From the NCBI GenBank assembly GCA_965223265.1, contig OZ244999.1, positions 8,000,001 through 8,064,000 on the forward strand: a stretch of 64,000 nt of DNA, in the 5' to 3' direction. Numbering within the stretch: the stretch's first letter is position 1; every line of letters begins with the position of its first letter. A program made the position numbers and the translations under genes. Below the pieces are notes generated by a model. That model was not told where the DNA came from. It ran no database searches and saw nothing but the letters and a program-made list of their open reading frames with translations. This DNA is from Planctomycetota bacterium (lineage in GTDB: Bacteria > Planctomycetota > UBA8108 > SXIK01). Shown here in pieces: positions 4,177 through 57,608 of the stretch.

Positions 4177-6342
4177 ATGCGACCGCTCTGCTGCGCATTC
4201 TTCCTCGCTCTCGCGAGCGCGCCGGCGTTAACGCCGCAGACCAGTTCGCCTCAGCTCGAGGCACTCGTAGACCAGCTCACCGAGCACATCAAAAAGGTCG
4301 ACCCACACAACTTTCGCGTCCCGGATTTCGCCGCTGGCAAGGAGTGGTTCAACTCTCCTCCGTTAAGCTTCGAGCGCCAACTCCGCGGCAAGATCGTCAT
4401 CCTCGACTTTTGGACGTACTGCTGCATCAACTGCATTCACGTCCTGCCGGATCTCGCCTACCTCGAGCGCAAGTATGCTGGCTATCCCGTCGCCTTCGTC
4501 GGCGTCCACTCCGCCAAGTTCGAGAACGAGAAGGTGTCGGAGAACATTCGCCAGGCCGTGATGCGCTACGACATCGAGCATCCGGTGATCAACGACGATG
4601 AGATGGCGCTGTGGCGTGCCATCGGCGTGCGCAGCTGGCCGACTCTTGCCGTGGTCGGACCGAAGGGTAATTTGCTGCTGATGGTGTCAGGAGAGGGTAA
4701 CCGCGATGTCCTCGACGCGGCGATCATCGCGGCGCTCGAGTTCTACCCGGCCGAGGCGTTTCGCCACGATCCAGTCCCCCACCGACTCGAACGCAGCGCG
4801 TCCGCAAACGAGTCGCCACTTAGCTATCCAGGCAAGCTGGCGGTCGACGCCGAGAGGCAGCGGCTCTACATAAGCGACTCGAACCATCACCGCATCGTCG
4901 TGACGGACTTGGCCGGGAAGTTCATCACCGCGATCGGCCGCGGCCGGCGCGGCCTCGACGACGGTGACTACGCCGCCGCGACGTTCCACCGTCTTCAAGG
5001 ACTGGCGGTGCACGGAGAACACCTCTACGTCGCGGACGCGGAGAACCACGCGCTGCGCCGTGTCGATCTCAAGGCGCAGACAGTCGTCACGCTTGTTGGC
5101 GACGGCACGCAGGGTCGCGACTACGAGGGCGGATCCAGCGGCAGCACGCAGCGCCTGAGCACGCCGTGGGATGTGGTCGTCGCCGACGGCGTCGTCTACA
5201 TCGCCATGGCCGGAACGCACCAGATTTGGAGTTACGATATCGCCCAAAACGTCTGCCGTCGCTTCAGCGGTACTGGGCGCGAGCAGAACCTGAATCATAC
5301 CGACCGCCTTGAAGCTGCCTGGGCCCAGCCTTCCGGATTAACGATCGGGGATGGTTGGCTCTTCGTCGCCGACAGCGAGAGCAGCACCGTGCGTGGAATT
5401 AGCATCGGCTCGGGCGAGACGGCGACGTTCGTCGGCGGTGTCGACAGTGAGCCCAGGAACCTGTTTGCCTTTGGCGATGTCGACGGCATTGGCGAAGCGG
5501 CACGCCTGCAGCATCCTCTAGGGGTGCTGTGGATCGAGAAGCTTGGGCGCGTACTGGTAGCGGATTCGTACAATCATCGCCTCAAGCTTGTGGACCATTC
5601 GGAGCGGCGCGTCGACACCTTCGCCGGCTCGGGCGTCGTCGGTTCGAGCGATGGCGAGGGCGCGAATGCCCAGTTCTTTGAGCCGTCCGGCTTCGCGCTC
5701 GACCCGGGCGGCGACCGCGTCTTCGTGGCGGACACCAACAATCACAGCATTCGCGTCTTGGATGTTGCTAGCCGCACGGTCTCGACGCTCGAGCTTGACG
5801 GAGTTCCCGCGGCCGTGCCGCAGGATGACCCTCGCAGCCGCCGTCTCGCGACGCTACCGGGGACGGTGCGTGTGCGCGCCGTGGCCCTGCGTCTGCCGCC
5901 GGCGGGTGTTGCCACACTTCGGGTGCACCTTGAACTGCCGGCGAACTATCACTACACCGATGGCGCCTCGAGTCGCTGGCAGGTGGTCGCAGCTGATGAC
6001 GCGCCGGCGACGGTTCAAAGCGGCGCCGCGCACGGCGAGCTCGTAAAACAGGTGGAAACGGCCGAGGTTCGAATCCTCGCCGCCCCACAGTCGACCGCAG
6101 GTACGCTGCTCGTCGAGGCGCTCGCGTATTACTGCCAGGCGCAGGGGGCATGTCAACTCGGCGCGGTGCTCTTCGAAATCCCGATCGAGGTGACAACGGA
6201 CGTGGAGGAACGAGAGCCGGCGGCGGTCGAGCTGCGGCACGTCTTCCCGGAGAAGCCGGACGCCTTGGGCTTCTTCCCGCCCGCGCGCCTCGAGACACCG
6301 GTGGCTCCCAGCGCACCACAGGAGAGTGAACCGCAGGACTGA
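4177..6342 (+). CDS. Thioredoxin-like + NHL-repeat protein (NHLRC2/SOQ1-like architecture)
   Basis: LDFWTYCCINCIHVLPDL, GVHSAKF, multiple ADxxNH NHL repeats, C-terminal YYC...GAC domain, signal peptide. Start uncertain. Confidence 0.88.
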   Translation: MRPLCCAFFLALASAPALTPQTSSPQLEALVDQLTEHIKKVDPHNFRVPDFAAGKEWFNSPPLSFERQLRGKIVILDFWTYCCINCIHVLPDLAYLERKYAGYPVAFVGVHSAKFENEKVSENIRQAVMRYDIEHPVINDDEMALWRAIGVRSWPTLAVVGPKGNLLLMVSGEGNRDVLDAAIIAALEFYPAEAFRHDPVPHRLERSASANESPLSYPGKLAVDAERQRLYISDSNHHRIVVTDLAGKFITAIGRGRRGLDDGDYAAATFHRLQGLAVHGEHLYVADAENHALRRVDLKAQTVVTLVGDGTQGRDYEGGSSGSTQRLSTPWDVVVADGVVYIAMAGTHQIWSYDIAQNVCRRFSGTGREQNLNHTDRLEAAWAQPSGLTIGDGWLFVADSESSTVRGISIGSGETATFVGGVDSEPRNLFAFGDVDGIGEAARLQHPLGVLWIEKLGRVLVADSYNHRLKLVDHSERRVDTFAGSGVVGSSDGEGANAQFFEPSGFALDPGGDRVFVADTNNHSIRVLDVASRTVSTLELDGVPAAVPQDDPRSRRLATLPGTVRVRAVALRLPPAGVATLRVHLELPANYHYTDGASSRWQVVAADDAPATVQSGAAHGELVKQVETAEVRILAAPQSTAGTLLVEALAYYCQAQGACQLGAVLFEIPIEVTTDVEEREPAAVELRHVFPEKPDALGFFPPARLETPVAPSAPQESEPQD

Positions 6343-48839: not shown

Positions 48840-49112
48840 ATGCAGACGATTCTTCTCTCCTTTGCGTTCGCCCCTGGTCCGTTCGAACTGGTCGTGATTC
48901 TTTTGGTCGGGCTCTTGCTCTTTGGCAAGAGGCTCCCCGAAATCGCCCGGAATCTGGGCAAAGGCGTCGTCGAATTCAAGCGCGGTTTGAAGAACGTCGA
49001 GGACGAGATCGAGCACGCTGAATACACGCCGCCGCCCAAGAAGCTCTACCGGGACGACGAAACGGGCTCGCAGGCGCCGGCTAACGGACCGACGACCTCG
49101 TCCGACGGCTAG
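48840..49112 (+). CDS. tatA: Twin-arginine translocase TatA/E subunit
   Basis: PGPFELVVILLVGLLLFGKRLPEIARNLGKGVVEFKRGL. Confidence 0.92.
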   Translation: MQTILLSFAFAPGPFELVVILLVGLLLFGKRLPEIARNLGKGVVEFKRGLKNVEDEIEHAEYTPPPKKLYRDDETGSQAPANGPTTSSDG

Positions 49113-49151
49113 TCGTTTAGTCGTTACGCTGGTCTGGCGGTTTTTCCCGCG

Positions 49152-49874
49152 TTAGCGACCGACTCGTAACCGCTCGCCCAGGGCGAGCGGCAGCCCTGCC
49201 TTTTGCACCTTGTGGACGACCGAATCGATGTCGTAGCGGAAGCGGTGCAGTTTGACTTCGCGTGTTTCGGTATCGAAGGTGGCGCAGCAGGCACGAGGGT
49301 CGCGATCGCGGGGCTGGCCGACGCTGCCGACGTTGACGATGATCCGCGTTTCGTCGCGCACCTTGACGCTCTTCTCCAAGCTATAGGAGATGAAACTCTC
49401 TTGGATGAAGATAATTGGCACGTGAGAGTGGCCGATGAAGCAGACGGGTGCCTGCATCTGTGCCATGGAGAGGGACGCGTCATAGCTGGTTTGGACGTAG
49501 TCGAAGAGCTCAGGCGAGCACAACGCGCCATGGACGATGTCGAGGCCATCTAGATGGTGAAGGAGCGGCAAGGCTGACAAGTACTCGACTTCGGCGCTCG
49601 AGAGTTCGTTTCGCGTCCACAGGGTCGCTTCACGAGCCAGCAAGTTGAATGTTTCGATGCTGAGCTTGTCGGCGACCGCGAGATCATGATTCCCAGCGAC
49701 AACAAATTCGGCGACACTGCGAATTCGCTCGACGCAGCGCGCTGGCTCCGGGCCGTAGCCGACGATATCGCCCAAGCAAATGAATGAGTCGATAGACTCG
49801 CCCCTCAGCCCGTCGAGCACGGACTCGAGGGCGTCATAGTTGCCGTGGATGTCTGAGAGAATGGCGTAGCGCAC
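49152..49874 (-). CDS. Metallophosphoesterase (calcineurin-like)
   Basis: SDIHGN, GDIVGYG, GNHD, HG, GHSH, NVGSVGQPRD. Confidence 0.92.
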   Translation of the reverse strand: MRYAILSDIHGNYDALESVLDGLRGESIDSFICLGDIVGYGPEPARCVERIRSVAEFVVAGNHDLAVADKLSIETFNLLAREATLWTRNELSSAEVEYLSALPLLHHLDGLDIVHGALCSPELFDYVQTSYDASLSMAQMQAPVCFIGHSHVPIIFIQESFISYSLEKSVKVRDETRIIVNVGSVGQPRDRDPRACCATFDTETREVKLHRFRYDIDSVVHKVQKAGLPLALGERLRVGR

Positions 49875-50080: not shown

Positions 50081-51199
50081 TGTTCCACGTGGAACAAATG
50101 GTGCTCCGAGACCAAATGTTCCACGTGGAACAATCATCTCGTGGTCCGGGCGGAGGCTGTCTGAGCCAGTTCTCTGAGAATGTTCCACGTGGAACATTTG
50201 TTCTACGGACCGAAATGCCCGAGATGTTCCACGTGGAACAATTTGGGTTCTATCGCGAAACGGGTCGCGATTGTTCCACGTGGAACAATCCCTTTTCGCG
50301 ATGACGGCAGTATGTTCCACGTGGAACAATGGTGCTCCGAGACCAAAATGTTCCACGTGGAACAATCATCTCGTGTCCGGGTGTGGAGGCTGTCTGAGCC
50401 AGTTCTCTGAAAATGTTCCACGTGGAACAATGCATGTTCTACGGCCGAAACGCGCCCGAGATGTTCCACGTGGAACAATCTATTGCGAAACGGGTCGTGA
50501 TTGTTCCACGTGGAACATCGTTTTCGCGTAGGACGGCAGAGTGTCAGTTTTCCGGGATCACGTTCCACGTGGAACAAACGCGCAGTCATGTTCCACGTGG
50601 AACAATGGTGCTCCGAGCCCAAATGTTCCACGTGGAACAATCTCTTTTCGCGATGACGGCAGTATGTTCCACGTGGAACAATGAGCTACGCGCGCAGGCA
50701 TGGTTCCACGTGGAACCATGGTGCGCCGAGACCGAATGTTCCACGTGGAACAATCATCTCGTGTCCGGGGTGTGGGCGCGGTCTGAGCCAGTTCTCTGAA
50801 ATGTTCCACGTGGAACAATCCTTTTCGCGATGACGGCAGTATGTTCCACGTGGAACAATGAGCTACACGCGCAGGCATGGTTCCACGTGGAACCATGGTG
50901 CGCCAAGACCAAATGTTCCACGTGGAACAATCTCGTGTCCGGGGTGTGGGCGGTCTGAGCCAGTTCTCTGAAATGTTCCACGTGGAACAATGCGTGTTCT
51001 ACGGCGCAAAACGCCCGAGATGTTCCACGTGGAACAATGAGCCACGCGCGCAGGCATGTTCCACGTGGAACCATGGTGCGCCGAGATGTTCCACGTGGAA
51101 CATTTTCGTTTGCAGCGGACCTCGACTCTCTGGCAAATGTTCCACGTGGAACATCTTTGGTTCCCCCCGAACACAAACCTAGATGTTCCACGTGGAACA
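50081..51199. repeat. Dense array of 26 parS palindromes (TGTTCCACGTGGAACA) with recurring spacers
   Basis: Sites start at 50081, 50117, 50181, 50225, 50272, 50313, 50349, 50414, 50462, 50502, 50561, 50589, 50624, 50665, 50702, 50737, 50802, 50842, 50879, 50914, 50974, 51021, 51057, 51087, 51138 and 51184. They match the bacterial chromosomal parS consensus TGTTNCACGTGAAACA-like, and the array lies directly upstream of parAB. Confidence 0.95.
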
Positions 51200-51274: not shown

Positions 51275-52039
51275 TTGGGCACCATCATCACGGTTGCGAG
51301 TCAGAAGGGCGGCGTTGGCAAGACCACGTCCGCCGTGAACCTAGCGGCGAGTCTCACCCTAGCCCACCAGGAAGTCTTGCTGGTGGACCTCGACCCCCAG
51401 GGCAACGCGTCGAGCGGCGTCGGCGTCGAGCCGGGCCGATCCCCGGTTTTGTCTCAGTCCTTGGGCGGGGATGGAGATCTGCGGCCGCTGGTTTCTCCGA
51501 CCTGTTTCGAGCACCTTTCGGTGCTCGCTTCGTCGGCCGAACTGTCGCACCTTGATTTGATCCACTCGGTACAGACGACCGGACTGCGGCGTTTTCGCGA
51601 TCAACTCGCGACACTCGCTGCGGACTTTGACTACGTCCTGCTCGACTGTCCTCCCTCGCTCGGCGGTTTGCCGACGATCGCGCTCGCCAGTTGTCGATGG
51701 GTTCTGATACCGATCCAGTGCGAGTACTACGCGATGGAGGGGTTAAGCCAGATATTGCCAATTATCAAAAAAATACAGAATGATATAAATCATGACTTAG
51801 AGATCGGAGGGCTGCTTTTGACCATGTACTCCGACGAATTGGAGCTCTCCCAAGATGTGTTGAGGGAAGTCAAGGGGTACTTCGGCGACCAAGTCTTCGA
51901 GAGCATCGTGCCGCGCGACGTCGTCTTGGCCGAAGCCTCAAGCCATGGTCAGCCGGTCTACTTCTATGCCCCGCTGTCGCGCGGCGCGTGGAGCTACATC
52001 GAACTCGCCAAGGAGGTGCTCGAACATGGGTGGGCGTAA
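51275..52039 (+). CDS. parA: Chromosome partitioning ATPase ParA/Soj
   Basis: Deviant Walker A QKGGVGKTT, DLDPQGN, DCPPSLG, PIQCEYYAMEGL. TTG start after AGGAG. Confidence 0.95.
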   Translation: MGTIITVASQKGGVGKTTSAVNLAASLTLAHQEVLLVDLDPQGNASSGVGVEPGRSPVLSQSLGGDGDLRPLVSPTCFEHLSVLASSAELSHLDLIHSVQTTGLRRFRDQLATLAADFDYVLLDCPPSLGGLPTIALASCRWVLIPIQCEYYAMEGLSQILPIIKKIQNDINHDLEIGGLLLTMYSDELELSQDVLREVKGYFGDQVFESIVPRDVVLAEASSHGQPVYFYAPLSRGAWSYIELAKEVLEHGWA

Positions 52040-52973
52040 ACTAGGACGCGGACTCGATCTTCTCATTCGAAAGCCTGCGGAGCCGCCTCCACCGCTTCCC
52101 GAAGAGACCCCACGAGTCGCCGAGGCGGGGTCGGGCGCGGCGGTCGAGAGCGACGAGTTTCAGCTCGTATCTGTCGACCCAAGAGCGGTGCGCGCGAATC
52201 CCGATCAGCCTCGTAAGCAGTTTGATGAAGAAGAGTTAGAGGCTCTCAAAGCGTCGATCTCGCAGGACGGGATCCTGCAGCCGCTTGTCCTGCGACGCGT
52301 CGACGACAGCTACGAGCTGATCGCCGGGGAGCGCCGCTTGCGCGCCGCACTCGAGCTCGACCTGCAGCGCGTTCCAGCAATGCTGACGGACTTCGACGAC
52401 GACCGCTTGCTCGAACTTGCTCTGGTCGAAAACATCCAACGCCAGGACTTGAACCCGATCGAAGTCGCCAAGGCCTACGCGCAGCTCATGGCGACGAAGA
52501 ACTGGACGCAGGAGGCGCTTGCCCGCTCCCTCGGCCTGTCGCGCTCAAGCGTTGCGAACTCTCTGCGTGTGCTGGACCTTCCGGAGGACATGCAGGTCTC
52601 ACTCGCAAAGTCGCAGATCAGCCCCGGGCACGCGAAGGTCCTGCTTTCCATCGACGAGGAAGAGCCGCGCCGCGAACTCTTCGAGCGCATCGCGGAGGAG
52701 CGCCTGACTGTCCGCGAGCTCGAGGAGGCCCGAGACGCCGCGCCGCAGCCAGCGCCTGCTGGCGTGGAGGCGAGCGTTCCCCCGTCGTCCCACCGTCCGC
52801 GTCCCCAGAAGAGGCGCGCCGACCTGCGACGCCTCGAAGAGGAGATGAGCGAAGCCATTGGGACGAAGGTGTCGATTCAGGAGCGCCGCGGCGGGCGCGG
52901 CAAAGTCACGGTGGAGTTTTACTCCGCAGACGACTTCGCCCGGATCCGCGAGCGCCTGACTGGCAGCGACTGA
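52026..52973 (+). CDS. parB: Chromosome partitioning CTPase ParB/Spo0J
   Basis: N-terminal LGRGL, NPDQPRKQF, GILQP, AGERRLRA, ENIQRQDL, HTH TQEALARSLGLSRSSVANSLRVL...GHAK. Confidence 0.96.
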   Translation: MGGRKLGRGLDLLIRKPAEPPPPLPEETPRVAEAGSGAAVESDEFQLVSVDPRAVRANPDQPRKQFDEEELEALKASISQDGILQPLVLRRVDDSYELIAGERRLRAALELDLQRVPAMLTDFDDDRLLELALVENIQRQDLNPIEVAKAYAQLMATKNWTQEALARSLGLSRSSVANSLRVLDLPEDMQVSLAKSQISPGHAKVLLSIDEEEPRRELFERIAEERLTVRELEEARDAAPQPAPAGVEASVPPSSHRPRPQKRRADLRRLEEEMSEAIGTKVSIQERRGGRGKVTVEFYSADDFARIRERLTGSD

Positions 52974-53249: not shown

Positions 53250-54908
53250 ATGAAAGCTCTCTCGGTGCGTCTTTGTGGGTTTGTTCTCGCTTTTGCTGTG
53301 ACCGCCCGGACGGCCGCGGAGTCCGACGTTCCCGCGCCGTCGAACTCCACGGCGGAATCTGCGGCAGCAAATCCGGGTGGAAGTTCCGCAGCCACCCCGC
53401 CGGCCGCTGACAGCGACTCCCACAACGTCGAGCTGGCACTCGCCGAGGCGGTGCGCATCGCCGTCGAGCACAATCTCGACGTCAGACTGGCGCGGCTCGA
53501 CGATGCCATCGGTCAGCGCAGTGTGGTCATCGCGCGGTCGGCGTTCGACCCGTTTTTCAACGTCTCGGCGAGCTTCGCCAAGAATCGCGACCCCACGGTC
53601 TCGTTCCTGGACGTCGGTACTGGAGTTCAGGGCGTCACCGTCAACCCATCTGAGATCACCAGCTATTCGGCGGGGCTCAATGGCACATGGCTCACTGGGG
53701 CGACTTACCAGCTGCAGCTGCAGCAGAACGCTTTCGATCGCCCGGCCGCCGCCGCCGGTGGGATCACCCGGCTCAACCCGATCAATCGCACCGACGTCGT
53801 CGCTGACCTTCGCCAACCCCTTTTGAAAGGAGCTTGGTTCGGCGTCAACAGCGCGGAGATTCGTATTGCGCGCAACGATCTCGATTTGACCCGTTACGAA
53901 TTCGAGCGTTTGCTCGCCGACACCATCTACGAGGTCGAAGCAGGCTATTGGGAGCTCACGTTCGCCCTGCAGAACCTGGCCGCAACGCAGAGTTCTGTCG
54001 CCGTCTCAACGCAAAACCTCGACAACGCCCGGAAGAATCGCGAGGCGGGAAGGTATTCCGACAACGATGTCCGCATCGCCGAAAGCCAGCTCTATCTGCG
54101 CAAAGTCGAGTTTCAAGAGGCGGAGCTGCTGGCGGCGAACGCACGGGATGCGCTGCTCAATCGCATCAACTACGCTGGCGAGATCTCGCTCCGTCAGCGC
54201 CGCAGCAGCGGTGATCGGCGCGGCTCGTACGACCACCTGCGTGTGCGGTGCACCACGGAGCCGAGCCTCGAGATGCCGCAGCTCGACCCTGATGCGGCAG
54301 TCGCCCTGGCGTTCGAGCTGCGCCCGGAGTACCGCCAGCTTGCGACCCGCATTGGTACGCAATCGATCCGCCTCGAGGTGGCGCGCAGCGAGCTTCTCCC
54401 GGCCCTCGATATCTTCGGACGCTGGACTCAGCTCGGAATGGAGGAGACCTACGACGATGCCTACCGGAGCCTAGGTCGAGGGAACTTCTACGACTGGCTC
54501 GTCGGGGTTGAAATGTCGGTGCCGCTGTCAAACCGCGGCCCGCGCAGCCGATACCGCAATGCCCGCAGCGAAAATGTGAAGCTCTACCTCGAGCGTCAGG
54601 CACTCGAGAATTCGATCGTCCTCGAGGTCGATCTCGCCGCTCGGACCCTGCGGAATCTCCGCGACCGCTCGATCGACTTGGACGCCCAGGTACAGGTCCA
54701 AGCACAGCTCCTGGCGGACGAGCGGAGCAATCTTGCGGCTGGCCGCACGATTCCCTACGCCGTCACGGTGGTGGAGAACGACCTCGTCGCGAGTCGCACG
54801 GCAGCACTTCGAGCCAAGGCGGATCTTGAGATCGCCAAGGCGGACTATTATCGCGCCACGGGGCAGCTTCTGCGGCGCTACGGCATCGTCGTCCTCGAGA
54901 GCGACTGA
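53250..54908 (+). CDS. TolC family outer membrane protein
   Basis: LALAEAVRIAVEHNL, LRQPLLKG, VEAGYWEL, RPEY, ELLPALD, MSVPL; signal peptide. Confidence 0.88.
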   Translation: MKALSVRLCGFVLAFAVTARTAAESDVPAPSNSTAESAAANPGGSSAATPPAADSDSHNVELALAEAVRIAVEHNLDVRLARLDDAIGQRSVVIARSAFDPFFNVSASFAKNRDPTVSFLDVGTGVQGVTVNPSEITSYSAGLNGTWLTGATYQLQLQQNAFDRPAAAAGGITRLNPINRTDVVADLRQPLLKGAWFGVNSAEIRIARNDLDLTRYEFERLLADTIYEVEAGYWELTFALQNLAATQSSVAVSTQNLDNARKNREAGRYSDNDVRIAESQLYLRKVEFQEAELLAANARDALLNRINYAGEISLRQRRSSGDRRGSYDHLRVRCTTEPSLEMPQLDPDAAVALAFELRPEYRQLATRIGTQSIRLEVARSELLPALDIFGRWTQLGMEETYDDAYRSLGRGNFYDWLVGVEMSVPLSNRGPRSRYRNARSENVKLYLERQALENSIVLEVDLAARTLRNLRDRSIDLDAQVQVQAQLLADERSNLAAGRTIPYAVTVVENDLVASRTAALRAKADLEIAKADYYRATGQLLRRYGIVVLESD

Positions 54909-54944
54909 CACCGCGCGTGCTGCGTTTCACACGGCGGCAGCCGC

Positions 54945-57380
54945 TCATCTCCCTCGGAGCTTGACGACCACCTCGACGGTCTTGCCATCTCGCCGCAGCT
55001 TGATGATCACCTCGTCTCCGGGAGAATGCTGCCGTAGTAGCTCGGTCCAGTGACTGACGCTGTCGATCTCGGTGTCTCCCCAGCGCAGGAGGACATCGCC
55101 CGCTTTGACGCCTGCGGCGGCCGCCGGCGACCCCTTGCGGATGTCCTCGAAACGTACACCGCGTTCTGAGAACGCATAGTCTGGCACCGACCCGAAGACG
55201 ACACGGAAGCCACCGGCCCGGGGGCGCGGAAACTCCACCCGCAGAGTCTCGATTTTGCCGTCGCGGCGCACTTCGAGTGCCACCTCGCTGCCGGCCTCTG
55301 CAGCTTGGACGGCTTCGACGAGCTGCGTGAAGTTGCTGATCGGTTCATTCCCGAAGCGGACGATCACATCGCCGGCCAACACGTTTCCTTTAGCGGCGGG
55401 TGATTCCGGCTCGACGTCGGTGACGCGGGCGCCTGGCTCGCTGAACTCCGAGTCGATGTGGACGCCGAGCTTCGGGCGGCCGCCGCCGTGGCCCGCCAGC
55501 GAAGTCGTTTCCTCGTTGAAACTGGGTGCCGACGGCATGGTCCGGACACGCTCAAGCACCGTCCCAATGACGTTGACGATTTGCTCGAGCGCCGGCAGGT
55601 TGAGCCGATCGACGTCATCTTCCGGCGTGTTGTAGTCGGCATGAATCCCTGTGAAAAAGAAGAGCGCCGGGATCTCGCGGCGCAGGAAGTGGGCATGGTC
55701 CGAGCCGCCGCCGCCAGGACCGCGGGTGCGATTGAGCTCGACCCCGCCACTTCCCTTGGCGACTTCGTCAAGCAGCTGTAGCAGCTCCGGGGAGCTGTCG
55801 CTGCCGATCACGTTGAGCACGGTGTTCTTCTTGGCACGGCCGATCATGTCGAGGTTGAGCATGGCAACGACCTCGTGGAGCAGAGCGGAACCGGCGATCT
55901 GCTCCACGCCGGTAGGTGCTACCCAGGTGCGATCGCCCGCTGGAGTCTCGACCTCGAGAAAGCCGTGATGCGTCCCACCGGTGGCGGTGACGCTGGTGCC
56001 CGCGGGGACGAGCTGCGTGCCATCGGCACCGGCGGCAGCGAACGGATCACGGGGGACGGCTTCGCTCAGGCGGAGGAGCCGCGGGGTACGCACCCAGTGG
56101 CGACTTCCCAGCAGGCCGATCTCCTCGCCGGAGAACAGGACGAAGATCACGGCTCGGCGCCCTTCCTCCGGGGTCGAGGCGGCGTCGGTCGCGTGCGCCA
56201 TCCTGGCCAGCTCCAGGACCCCGGCGACGCCGCTGGCGTTATCGTCGGCGCCATTATGGATTTTTCCCACGTTCTCCGGCTTGACCTGATCGCCAAAGCG
56301 GCCGATGTGGTCGTAGTGTCCACCAACGACGACGGTCTCCTTCCCGAGCGCGCCGCTCCCAGGCAGCTTGGCGGCGACGTTGCGCAGGAGGGCGTAGCCG
56401 AGTCGGGTCTCAAACTTTAGTCGCGTCTTGGGGATTTCGAAGCTGGCTGGCTTGAGCTCGTTCTCGATGGACTGCACGACCTCCGCGAGGCTGCGTCCGG
56501 CGCGACGAAGGACTGCGTCGACGACGTCGGCTCGCGCGATGAGTGCTGGTAGGGTGGGGTGCCGCGGCGCGGCGCGGCGCGCGAAACCTTGGAGATTGCG
56601 CACGCTCGCGACTTCGCTGCGCGCCAGGTTTGAGTCGGGAGGGGTGACGAAGACCACCCCGGCGGCGCCGTGCTTGCGGGCGTTTCGCAGCTTGCTGAGA
56701 AAGGGCGCGTGTGGGCTCCCGCGGCCGCCGAAAGGATCAACCCCGCTGCCCGCGCCGGGCACGAAGCGCAGGACGATGACGATCTTGCCGGTGACGTCGA
56801 TGCCGCTATAGTCATCGTAGGCGAGCCCTTCGTCGCGCTCATCTTCCGACGTGGTGATGCCGTAGCCGGCGAAGACCAGGGGCGCTTCGACAACGCGCGC
56901 GTCGCCGTAGGCGAGCGGCATGGCGTCGATCCACGGCGCCCACGTTGTCTCGCCCTGCTCGTCGCTGAGCTTGGCCCCGAGCTGGCGACCGAAGTCGGCG
57001 CCGAACGGCGCGGTGAAGTATTGAAAGAAGCTGCCGTGATCGCCGGCTGGCTCAAGTCCCATGGCCGCGAGCTCCGTCGCCAAGTATTCCGCCGCGATCT
57101 CTAGGCCGGGTTCGCCGCTGTCGCGACCACCGAGGGCGTCGCTGGCAAGGAATGAGACGTGCTCGTGAAGGCGCGCCCGGTTTGCCTGTGCGGCCGGTGC
57201 TGCAGCGTTTTCGGGCGCCGCGAAAACGCTCCCGCGCAAGGCAACCGGGAGTTGTGGCAGCTGTGCCGCGATCGTCAGCGCACAGGCTAGAGCAGCGAGG
57301 GCGGCGCCGGGAGCGCGACGCAGCCGCTGGCGCACGGACTGGTGAGGCTGATCGTGTAGGCTTGGCTGATAATGTGGCAT
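54945..57380 (-). CDS. M28 family aminopeptidase with PA domain and two PDZ domains
   Basis: LASDALGGR, LVFAGYGI (PA), GGHYDH, GADDNASG, GEEIGLLGS, NLDMIGR, SDHAHF, two C-terminal PDZ. Start uncertain. Confidence 0.9.
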   Translation of the reverse strand: MPHYQPSLHDQPHQSVRQRLRRAPGAALAALACALTIAAQLPQLPVALRGSVFAAPENAAAPAAQANRARLHEHVSFLASDALGGRDSGEPGLEIAAEYLATELAAMGLEPAGDHGSFFQYFTAPFGADFGRQLGAKLSDEQGETTWAPWIDAMPLAYGDARVVEAPLVFAGYGITTSEDERDEGLAYDDYSGIDVTGKIVIVLRFVPGAGSGVDPFGGRGSPHAPFLSKLRNARKHGAAGVVFVTPPDSNLARSEVASVRNLQGFARRAAPRHPTLPALIARADVVDAVLRRAGRSLAEVVQSIENELKPASFEIPKTRLKFETRLGYALLRNVAAKLPGSGALGKETVVVGGHYDHIGRFGDQVKPENVGKIHNGADDNASGVAGVLELARMAHATDAASTPEEGRRAVIFVLFSGEEIGLLGSRHWVRTPRLLRLSEAVPRDPFAAAGADGTQLVPAGTSVTATGGTHHGFLEVETPAGDRTWVAPTGVEQIAGSALLHEVVAMLNLDMIGRAKKNTVLNVIGSDSSPELLQLLDEVAKGSGGVELNRTRGPGGGGSDHAHFLRREIPALFFFTGIHADYNTPEDDVDRLNLPALEQIVNVIGTVLERVRTMPSAPSFNEETTSLAGHGGGRPKLGVHIDSEFSEPGARVTDVEPESPAAKGNVLAGDVIVRFGNEPISNFTQLVEAVQAAEAGSEVALEVRRDGKIETLRVEFPRPRAGGFRVVFGSVPDYAFSERGVRFEDIRKGSPAAAAGVKAGDVLLRWGDTEIDSVSHWTELLRQHSPGDEVIIKLRRDGKTVEVVVKLRGR

Positions 57381-57608
57381 GCAACTCTCCGAGCTGTTCT
57401 TCCCGCCGTTTGAATCGGCACTCGCCGGCGATGGCGAGGTGATCATGAAAGCGAAAAACGCTGGTGGGTCTCCAGGCGGGCCCGGCGTCAACGCCTGCTT
57501 CGCCGCTTGTTTTATGGTACCTGAAATCTTCTGTTTTATCCTACCGGGGCCGGGCGACCGAAGGTCGAGACCCAGCCGGTATCAAGCCCTGGGCGCGACG
57601 CTGTTTCG

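Follow-up and report, generated by a model that had tools for sequence, protein, structure and literature searches.

A ParB-linked ParA of Planctomycetota lacks the canonical DNA-binding arginines and has an altered pocket for the ParB arginine

The diffusion-ratchet and DNA-relay models of ParABS chromosome segregation depend on ATP-bound ParA dimers that bind the nucleoid via a basic patch. Here we analyze the parA gene located at 51275..52039 (plus strand) of a 64,000-nucleotide stretch of a Planctomycetota genome (contig OZ244999.1, positions 8,000,001 to 8,064,000; G000:C1:8000001-8064000), hereafter called the window. Aligned with described chromosomal Soj/ParA proteins, the product of this gene (the query) departs from two near-universal features of the family, namely the DNA-binding arginines and the pocket that accommodates the ParB arginine.

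The DNA-binding face of ParA has been mapped in several bacteria. In Caulobacter crescentus ParA, the DNA contacts are R194, R195, R221, R224, K233, and K241 (PMC7229837). According to another study, the Caulobacter R195E variant shows no DNA binding in an electrophoretic mobility shift assay and cannot trigger its ATPase; R195A and R195E are likened there to Bacillus subtilis Soj R189A and R189E, described as reducing DNA binding, and R195E traps parS at the pole through PopZ (PMC10711552). In Myxococcus xanthus ParA, R238E, which lies at residue 219 of the 8ray chain, is described as devoid of non-specific DNA binding. The same study assigns Y81, E82, D110, and E117 to the pocket that receives the arginine of the ParB peptide: the Y81L, D110R, and E117R variants have no ATPase activity with ParB and limiting parS DNA and, in excess non-specific DNA, turn over markedly below wild type, while ParB binding is hardly affected (PMC12462528). 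Lastly, the DNA complex of Helicobacter pylori Soj (HpSoj, also HpParA; 6iub, 6iuc, 8jmj) involves K199, K227, K230, and K247, and the binding of a quadruple glutamate mutant of these lysines was not measurable (PMC6393308); K227 also makes a water-mediated contact with ATP (PMC11229316).

The query resembles the Soj/ParA proteins of B. subtilis, Thermus thermophilus (1wcv/2bek), M. xanthus (8ray), and C. crescentus in size, fold, and Walker motifs and, as in those systems, its gene directly precedes a CTPase-type parB and lies close to the origin beside parS. Translation of the 254-residue protein begins at a TTG preceded at 8 nt by AGGAG; no earlier start codon is present in the open frame, which spans 269 codons. 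The product matches the Pfam families AAA_31 (1.9e-46) and CbiA. Its best match among solved chains by phmmer is 8ray_B (E 8e-65; 45% identity to 8ray), followed by the Soj proteins of T. thermophilus (4e-48) and H. pylori (3e-42), whereas MinD chains match far more weakly (E 1e-6 to 7e-18). An AF2 model built from 70 homologues (pLDDT 94.3) aligns in Foldseek with a TM of 0.92 to both 8ray and the B. subtilis Soj model 9a6n, at probability 1.00. The catalytic core that an earlier sequence-only reading of the window had described as intact is present: the deviant Walker A KGGVGKT at 51305..51325 (plus strand; residues 11-17, with the signature K11 and K16), motif 2 DLDPQGN at residues 38-44 (DLDPQ, 38-42), and Walker B DCPP at residues 124-127. 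K11, G12-G15, and K16 are invariant across the 70 aligned homologues. Taken together, fold, motifs, and genomic context identify the product as a chromosomal Soj/ParA belonging to a divergent lineage of that family. Decay into a pseudogene can be ruled out, as all catalytic motifs are intact and the unusual residues described below are kept in homologues of 50-66% identity.

Both segments that carry the DNA-binding arginines in other ParAs are altered. The first, LTMYSDELEL (residues 182-191), contains an acidic loop, D187-E188-L189-E190 (51833..51844, plus strand), at the start of helix 190-206, in which E188 (codon GAA, 51836-51838) replaces Soj R189 and Caulobacter R195. The second, PRDVVLAE (residues 213-220), includes R214-D215-V216-V217 (51914..51925, plus strand), in which R214 is kept, the canonical asparagine of the P-R-N motif has become D215, and V217 (codon GTC, 51923-51925) replaces Soj R218, M. 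xanthus R238, and HpSoj K230. Glutamate and valine at these two sites, with these codons, are exactly what the sequence-only reading had assigned by manual alignment, and its register is correct: the phmmer alignments with 8ray, 1wcv, and 2bek are free of gaps over residues 103-250, the arginine of 'tmfdsRani' or 'tmydgRtll' aligning with E188 and the second arginine of 'prnvRlse' or 'prnvRlae' with V217. For comparison, two named Bacillaceae ParAs (L017, L057) read TMLDARTNLGIQ and PRNVRL[GS]E at these sites.

The losses extend beyond these two positions. Caulobacter R194, R195, R221, R224, K233, and K241 correspond to D187, E188, R214, V217, Q226, and L234 in the query, so that five of six basic contacts are lost, and the positions of HpSoj K199, K227, K230, and K247 are occupied by Q193, R214, V217, and L234 (phmmer alignment). 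The query thus differs from chromosomal Soj/ParA by E188, V217, three further lost basic contacts, D215, and the acidic loop 187-190. The retention of R214 says little about DNA, since its HpSoj equivalent, K227, also contacts ATP through water. HpSoj, with a glutamine at the E188 position, is itself a natural ParA without an equivalent of R189 and shows that not every DNA-binding ParA has this arginine; it nevertheless binds DNA and keeps its four DNA-face lysines, of which the query keeps only the K227 equivalent. The query is naturally glutamate at Caulobacter R195 and non-basic at M. xanthus R238, and in this respect resembles the laboratory DNA-binding-null variants (Caulobacter R195E, M. 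xanthus R238E, Soj R189A/E). Those variants, however, are single mutations that disable segregation, whereas the changes in the query are conserved across the phylum in an intact, presumably functional operon.

To place these changes in a wider frame, we counted charges at ten literature-mapped positions of the face and compared a close clade of 94 homologues (50-66% identity, at least 240 residues, drawn from the first 99 matches) with 78 ParAs of other phyla. The net charge of the face is -2 in the query vs a mean of +4.4 and a minimum of +2 in the other phyla. In the close clade, residue 188 is non-basic in 93 of 94 sequences and acidic in 86% of them, residue 190 is acidic in 80%, residue 217 is non-basic in all 94, and D215 is present in 100%; neither 188 nor 190 is ever acidic among the 78. 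Acidic residues were gained in the clade at 187, 188, 190, 194, 215, and 243, and basic residues were lost at 103, 115, 188, 201, 206, and 217. The acidic gains at 187, 188, 190, 194, and 215 point to selection and not to decay: since the same changes are kept across the 94 homologues, they are best described as conserved charge reversals. Compensating basic residues, which the sequence-only reading had named as a finding that would speak against it, were looked for at every aligned position of the 94 homologues, and none is newly conserved relative to the 78. This also separates the clade from MipZ, with no conserved gain of basic residues. The canonical DNA-binding face is dismantled and partly acidified.

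The partner gene, parB (52026..52973, plus strand), overlaps the 3' end of parA by 14 nt and encodes a canonical ParB of 315 residues with an ATG start, comprising the Pfam domains ParB_N, HTH_ParB, and ParB_C (C-terminal dimerization) and scoring 168.5 bits against a cut-off of 58.45 for TIGR00180. Its N-terminus, MGGRKLGRGL, carries the ParA-activating peptide KLGRGL (L6-L10, 52041-52055). Among 23 aligned Planctomycetota ParBs, neither the GERRxRA CTPase box nor L6, G7, and G9 of the peptide vary, and R8 is conserved in at least 90%. The earlier statement that the LGRGL peptide is intact therefore stands, but it missed a change on the ParA side. The helix equivalent to Y81/E82 reads SPVLSQSL (residues 56-63; 51440..51463, plus strand), without a tyrosine or an acidic residue. 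The canonical D-L-x-G-A-E-[IV]-E-L is replaced by ELSHLDLIHS (residues 89-98; 51539..51568, plus strand), in which E89 keeps the D110 position and the E117 position is taken by I96 (phmmer) or S98 (MAFFT), non-acidic either way. The D110 equivalent is thus the only one of the four pocket residues retained, and the query lacks the tyrosine and glutamate by which chromosomal Soj/ParA proteins sense the ParB arginine. Close homologues read G-[FL]-[LFM]-[SA] and L-S-x-L-[DE]-L-I-[QH] where canonical proteins read x-Y-[DE]-x-L and L-x-G-A-E-[IV]-E-L. A rough regular expression for Y[DE], which misses some canonical sequences, finds the motif in 56 of the 78 other-phyla ParAs, 5 of 53 Planctomycetota ParAs linked to parB, and none of the 94 close homologues. 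The pocket for the LGRGL arginine is remodelled. A predicted complex of the ParA dimer with two ATP and ParB residues 1-40 scored 0.00 in both runs, which had no controls and speak neither for nor against the contact. It is worth noting that some relatives (L086, L087) have a lysine-rich stretch after the LGRGL peptide, where the ParB of the window has a proline-rich linker.

The distribution of these features was followed in ParAs grouped by phylum and by the presence of a same-strand parB downstream, a grouping independent of the residues counted. The other-phyla set comes from one species-genome scan, mostly of ParAs from other phyla; of the 80 loci closest to the query among the matches listed, 78 ParAs were used, 76 of them beside parB. 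Within Planctomycetota, 171 of 201 genomes, the query genome (G000) included, have a ParA match at E 1e-30 or better; the best match was taken in 89 of the 170 other matching genomes (29 automatic and 60 fetched loci), and two named metagenome-assembled genomes (MAGs) were added from the species-genome scan (Planctomycetaceae and Rhodopirellula sp.). In other phyla, a basic residue occupies 188 in 76 ParAs and 217 in 72; 70 have both, and no ParA lacks both. In contrast, 41 of the 53 parB-linked Planctomycetota ParAs have neither basic residue, nine keep 188 only, and three keep both (L098, L151, L168); the second basic residue, equivalent to R218, is missing in 50 of the 53. D215 is present in 50 of 53 vs 0 of 78. 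It occurs in 21 of the 150 best representatives of clusters at 50% identity, never together with a basic 217, which 118 of the other 129 carry. The MAGs labeled Rhodopirellula sp. and Planctomycetaceae carry the arginine-less trait. In sister lineages of the Planctomycetes–Verrucomicrobia–Chlamydiae (PVC) group, a Verrucomicrobiia MAG ParA keeps both basic residues and a Kiritimatiellia one reads N188 and R217 (L028, L062). In a quick, unrooted FastTree phylogeny of 171 sequences, in which two long branches were flagged, a branch with support 97 separates 52 sequences, the query among them, from the rest; these are 51 parB-linked Planctomycetota ParAs and L089, from a locus truncated by a contig end, while L098, L151, and L168 fall outside. 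The parA-parB operon is kept in many Planctomycetota families. As judged from the aligned residues, arginine loss is a trait of parB-linked ParAs across the phylum sample and not a peculiarity of the query genome. A search of the full-text literature, covering listings and the beginnings of abstracts, with subscription journals and supplements outside its scope, found no description of this trait.

The genome encodes a second ParA, 43% identical to the query and without an adjacent parB (G000:C1:5401110-5401850; locus L002, 1483-2238, minus strand). This unlinked paralogue has arginine at 188, lysine at 217, and asparagine at 215, as well as the Y-x, GAE-x-EL, and RE motifs, and so retains all canonical residues of the DNA-binding face and the ParB pocket. 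In 38 of the 89 other genomes, too, the ParA that best matches the query is unlinked; one such locus is interrupted by a contig end. Counting the paralogue of the query genome, the 39 unlinked ParAs have a basic residue at 217 in 36 cases and at 188 in 23, and 37 of the 39 cluster in the FastTree phylogeny, with support 97, beside ParAs of other phyla. Five genomes of the unlinked type were inspected, and all carry a parB that has parS in its vicinity but no parA within 1.5 kb. In some families, an unlinked ParA appears to be the sole ParA, with parB standing alone elsewhere. The common neighbors of the unlinked genes form only family-specific clusters of 4-8 loci, with neither a functional clue nor a link to a centromere.

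Upstream of parA, a parS array occupies 50081..51199, in which TGTTCCACGTGGAACA recurs 22 times exactly and 4 times approximately; these 26 sites, vs 0 expected, fill 1.12 kb at about one per 45 bp. The many 'MFHVEH...' open reading frames listed in the array are artefacts of translating the palindrome. A scan of the whole genome (a single contig of 9.18 Mb) places all 24 sites with at most one mismatch within the array and finds no other parS sites. Because the last site ends 75 bp 5' of the parA start, the parAB promoter must lie within the array. Along the genome, cumulative GC skew reaches a minimum at ~7.95 Mb and a maximum at ~3.55 Mb, and a dnaA-like gene lies at 7.9625 Mb; the parS-parAB locus, at 8.05 Mb, is ~0.1 Mb from the inferred origin. 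It is the chromosomal partition system. The genome has two dnaA-like genes, both below the TIGR00362 cut-off: a 313-bit match at G000:C1:5353177-5354622, in mid-replichore and 48 kb from the unlinked ParA, and a weaker, N-terminally shorter match of 247 bits at 7962515-7963483, which adjoins the origin given by the GC skew. The parAB locus lies outside the classical rsmG-parA-parB setting; its neighbors (48840-49874 and 53250-57491) were judged by eye to encode a TatA-like small membrane protein, a metallophosphoesterase, a TolC-like outer-membrane protein, and an M28/PDZ peptidase.

Large arrays are rare in the phylum sample. Exact TGTTNCACGTGNAACA sites number 22 in the query genome, 14 in G144, 12 in G064, 9 each in G188 and G120, and 8 in G067, while the remaining genomes of the 201 have at most 7 and 102 have none. 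Arrays of at least 8 exact sites thus occur in 6 of 201 genomes, from at least three families. Those of G188 (same family as the query genome) and G120 (same order) lie directly upstream of a parA of the E188 type. In a different family, the array of G067 (locus L184, G067:C2:67000-79000, 5682-6116) consists of 8 sites spaced ~50 bp apart and immediately precedes a parB; no parA occurs within 12 kb of that gene. Such arrays arose separately in other families.

Based on the above data, we propose that the query ParA has likely lost canonical nucleoid binding. With both arginines missing, the catalytic motifs intact, and no compensating conserved basic residue, the loss or strong weakening of this activity is a reasonable inference. 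In this scheme, binding of the ATP dimer to the nucleoid through the canonical electrostatic patch would be absent or very weak. The linked ParA would remain a partner of ParB, since both the operon and the ParB peptide are conserved, and, as canonical nucleoid binding would be absent or weak while this partnership is kept, it would probably work on a different or indirect support. The ATPase switch triggered by ParB and DNA would probably be rewired as well. That the scheme holds as a whole, with the ATP dimer off the usual patch of the nucleoid, the ParB partner acting on a different or indirect support, and an activation switch unlike the synergy of ParB plus DNA in M. xanthus, seems to us an evenly balanced proposition. 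For the support, the sequence-only reading had offered a protein or membrane matrix. MinD carries a C-terminal amphipathic membrane-targeting helix. Together with MipZ, which binds DNA through a different surface made of entirely other residues (PMC7229837), it shows that the ParA/MinD fold can exchange its positioning surface. The query, far closer to Soj than to MinD, has no terminal extension: its last core helix is 236-250 of 254, leaving four residues in the AF2 model, and neither the open reading frame nor the model of the 254-residue protein offers an N- or C-terminal extension able to form a MinD-like helix. Binding through a terminal helix is therefore ruled out and a membrane support is unlikely, whereas a protein scaffold is possible. 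Our preferred guess is that a basic protein partner docks on the conserved acidic patch.

Several observations weigh against a loss of nucleoid binding, and most of them would fit an ordinary diffusion-ratchet ParA in which R214, R236, and K246, perhaps with R197/K200, sustain nucleoid binding of lower affinity and the loss of the arginines reflects lineage drift. The query keeps R214, R236, and K246, all highly conserved in the close clade (position 236 is basic in 95% and position 246 in 99%), and together these residues could make up a weak patch. P-loop ATPases differ in the determinants by which they bind DNA, which are often poorly conserved, MipZ relying on other residues (PMC7229837). 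HpSoj binds DNA with a Kd of 122 nM despite the glutamine at its R189 position, and its single lysine-to-glutamate mutants lose just about two-fold in affinity (PMC6393308). A basic 188 is kept alone in 9 of the 53 Planctomycetota parB-linked ParAs, no candidate partner protein was found for the query, and the comparison rests on the 80 query-nearest loci of one scan and on 89 of the 170 other matching genomes. However, lineage drift sits poorly with the conserved charge reversals (E or D at 188 in 86% of 94, D215 in 100%), with the absence of any conserved basic gain in the clade, and with a face charge of -2 where the 78 other-phyla ParAs never fall below +2; moreover, R195E in Caulobacter and R238E in Myxococcus abolish DNA binding (PMC10711552, PMC12462528). 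We consider a low-affinity ratchet possible but rather doubtful. A division of labor between the two ParAs is less probable still, and we regard it as unlikely. Here the unlinked ParA (G000:C1:5401110-5401850) would be the nucleoid-bound motor activated by the ParB LGRGL peptide, and the linked ParA a regulator or anchor (in ParB loading, origin tethering, or replication initiation) and not the transport ATPase. The paralogue's R188, K217, and pocket motifs (Y-x, GAE-x-EL, RE) agree with such a role, as do the separate grouping of unlinked ParAs within the phylum (37 of 39, support 97), the 38 of 89 genomes in which they are the best match, the five of five tested that have parB without parA within 1.5 kb, and the conservation of the ParB peptide although the pocket of the linked ParA has changed. 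Against it stands the translationally coupled parA-parB operon, kept across many families, whose tightness and conservation argue that the linked ParA still works with ParB, and the neighbors of the unlinked genes vary by family without any sign of a centromere role.

The sequence-only reading had instead joined the arginine loss to the expanded parS array as a single undescribed ParABS variant, and had suggested examining whether the two co-occur across genomes. Such co-evolved halves would be consistent with the query locus and with the two same-order relatives that have 9 exact sites upstream of an E188-type parA. The survey did not bear the idea out: in the phylum sample, lack of the arginines is the rule and the ParAs concerned mostly have 0-3 parS sites beside them, arrays of at least 8 exact sites are confined to 6 of the 201 genomes and spread over at least three families, G172, from the same order, has E188 and no exact parS site, and the 8-site array of G067 precedes a parB that stands without a parA. 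Since the arrays and the arginine loss do not co-vary, their co-evolution as one package is very improbable. Returning to the altered support that we favor, its boldest form would be that the ancestral chromosomal ParA of Planctomycetota gave up the nucleoid track altogether, that the acidic face of the ParB-linked ParA docks on another support under a rewired ParB switch, examples being a nucleoid-associated protein, a basic scaffold, and the ParB complex itself, and that nucleoid binding persists only in the unlinked paralogue. We advance this extension tentatively and think it less probable than the general scheme.

Nearly all sampled ParB-linked ParAs of the phylum lack the basic residues that hold DNA in other bacteria, which implies that chromosome segregation in Planctomycetota may depart from the textbook model. 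This phylum is also not known to have FtsZ, and its members often divide by budding. The usual ParB-linked ParA throughout the phylum appears to be the counterpart of laboratory DNA-binding-null mutants, combined with a changed ParB pocket. Some model planctomycete species have genetics. If these ParAs do bind DNA, they would represent a new DNA-binding solution on the ParA fold. If they do not, Planctomycetota would provide a natural setting in which to find out on what other track a partition ATPase can run, and would also show how activation by ParB can be rewired; in the boldest form outlined above, this would amount to a two-ParA, DNA-independent mode of chromosome segregation.

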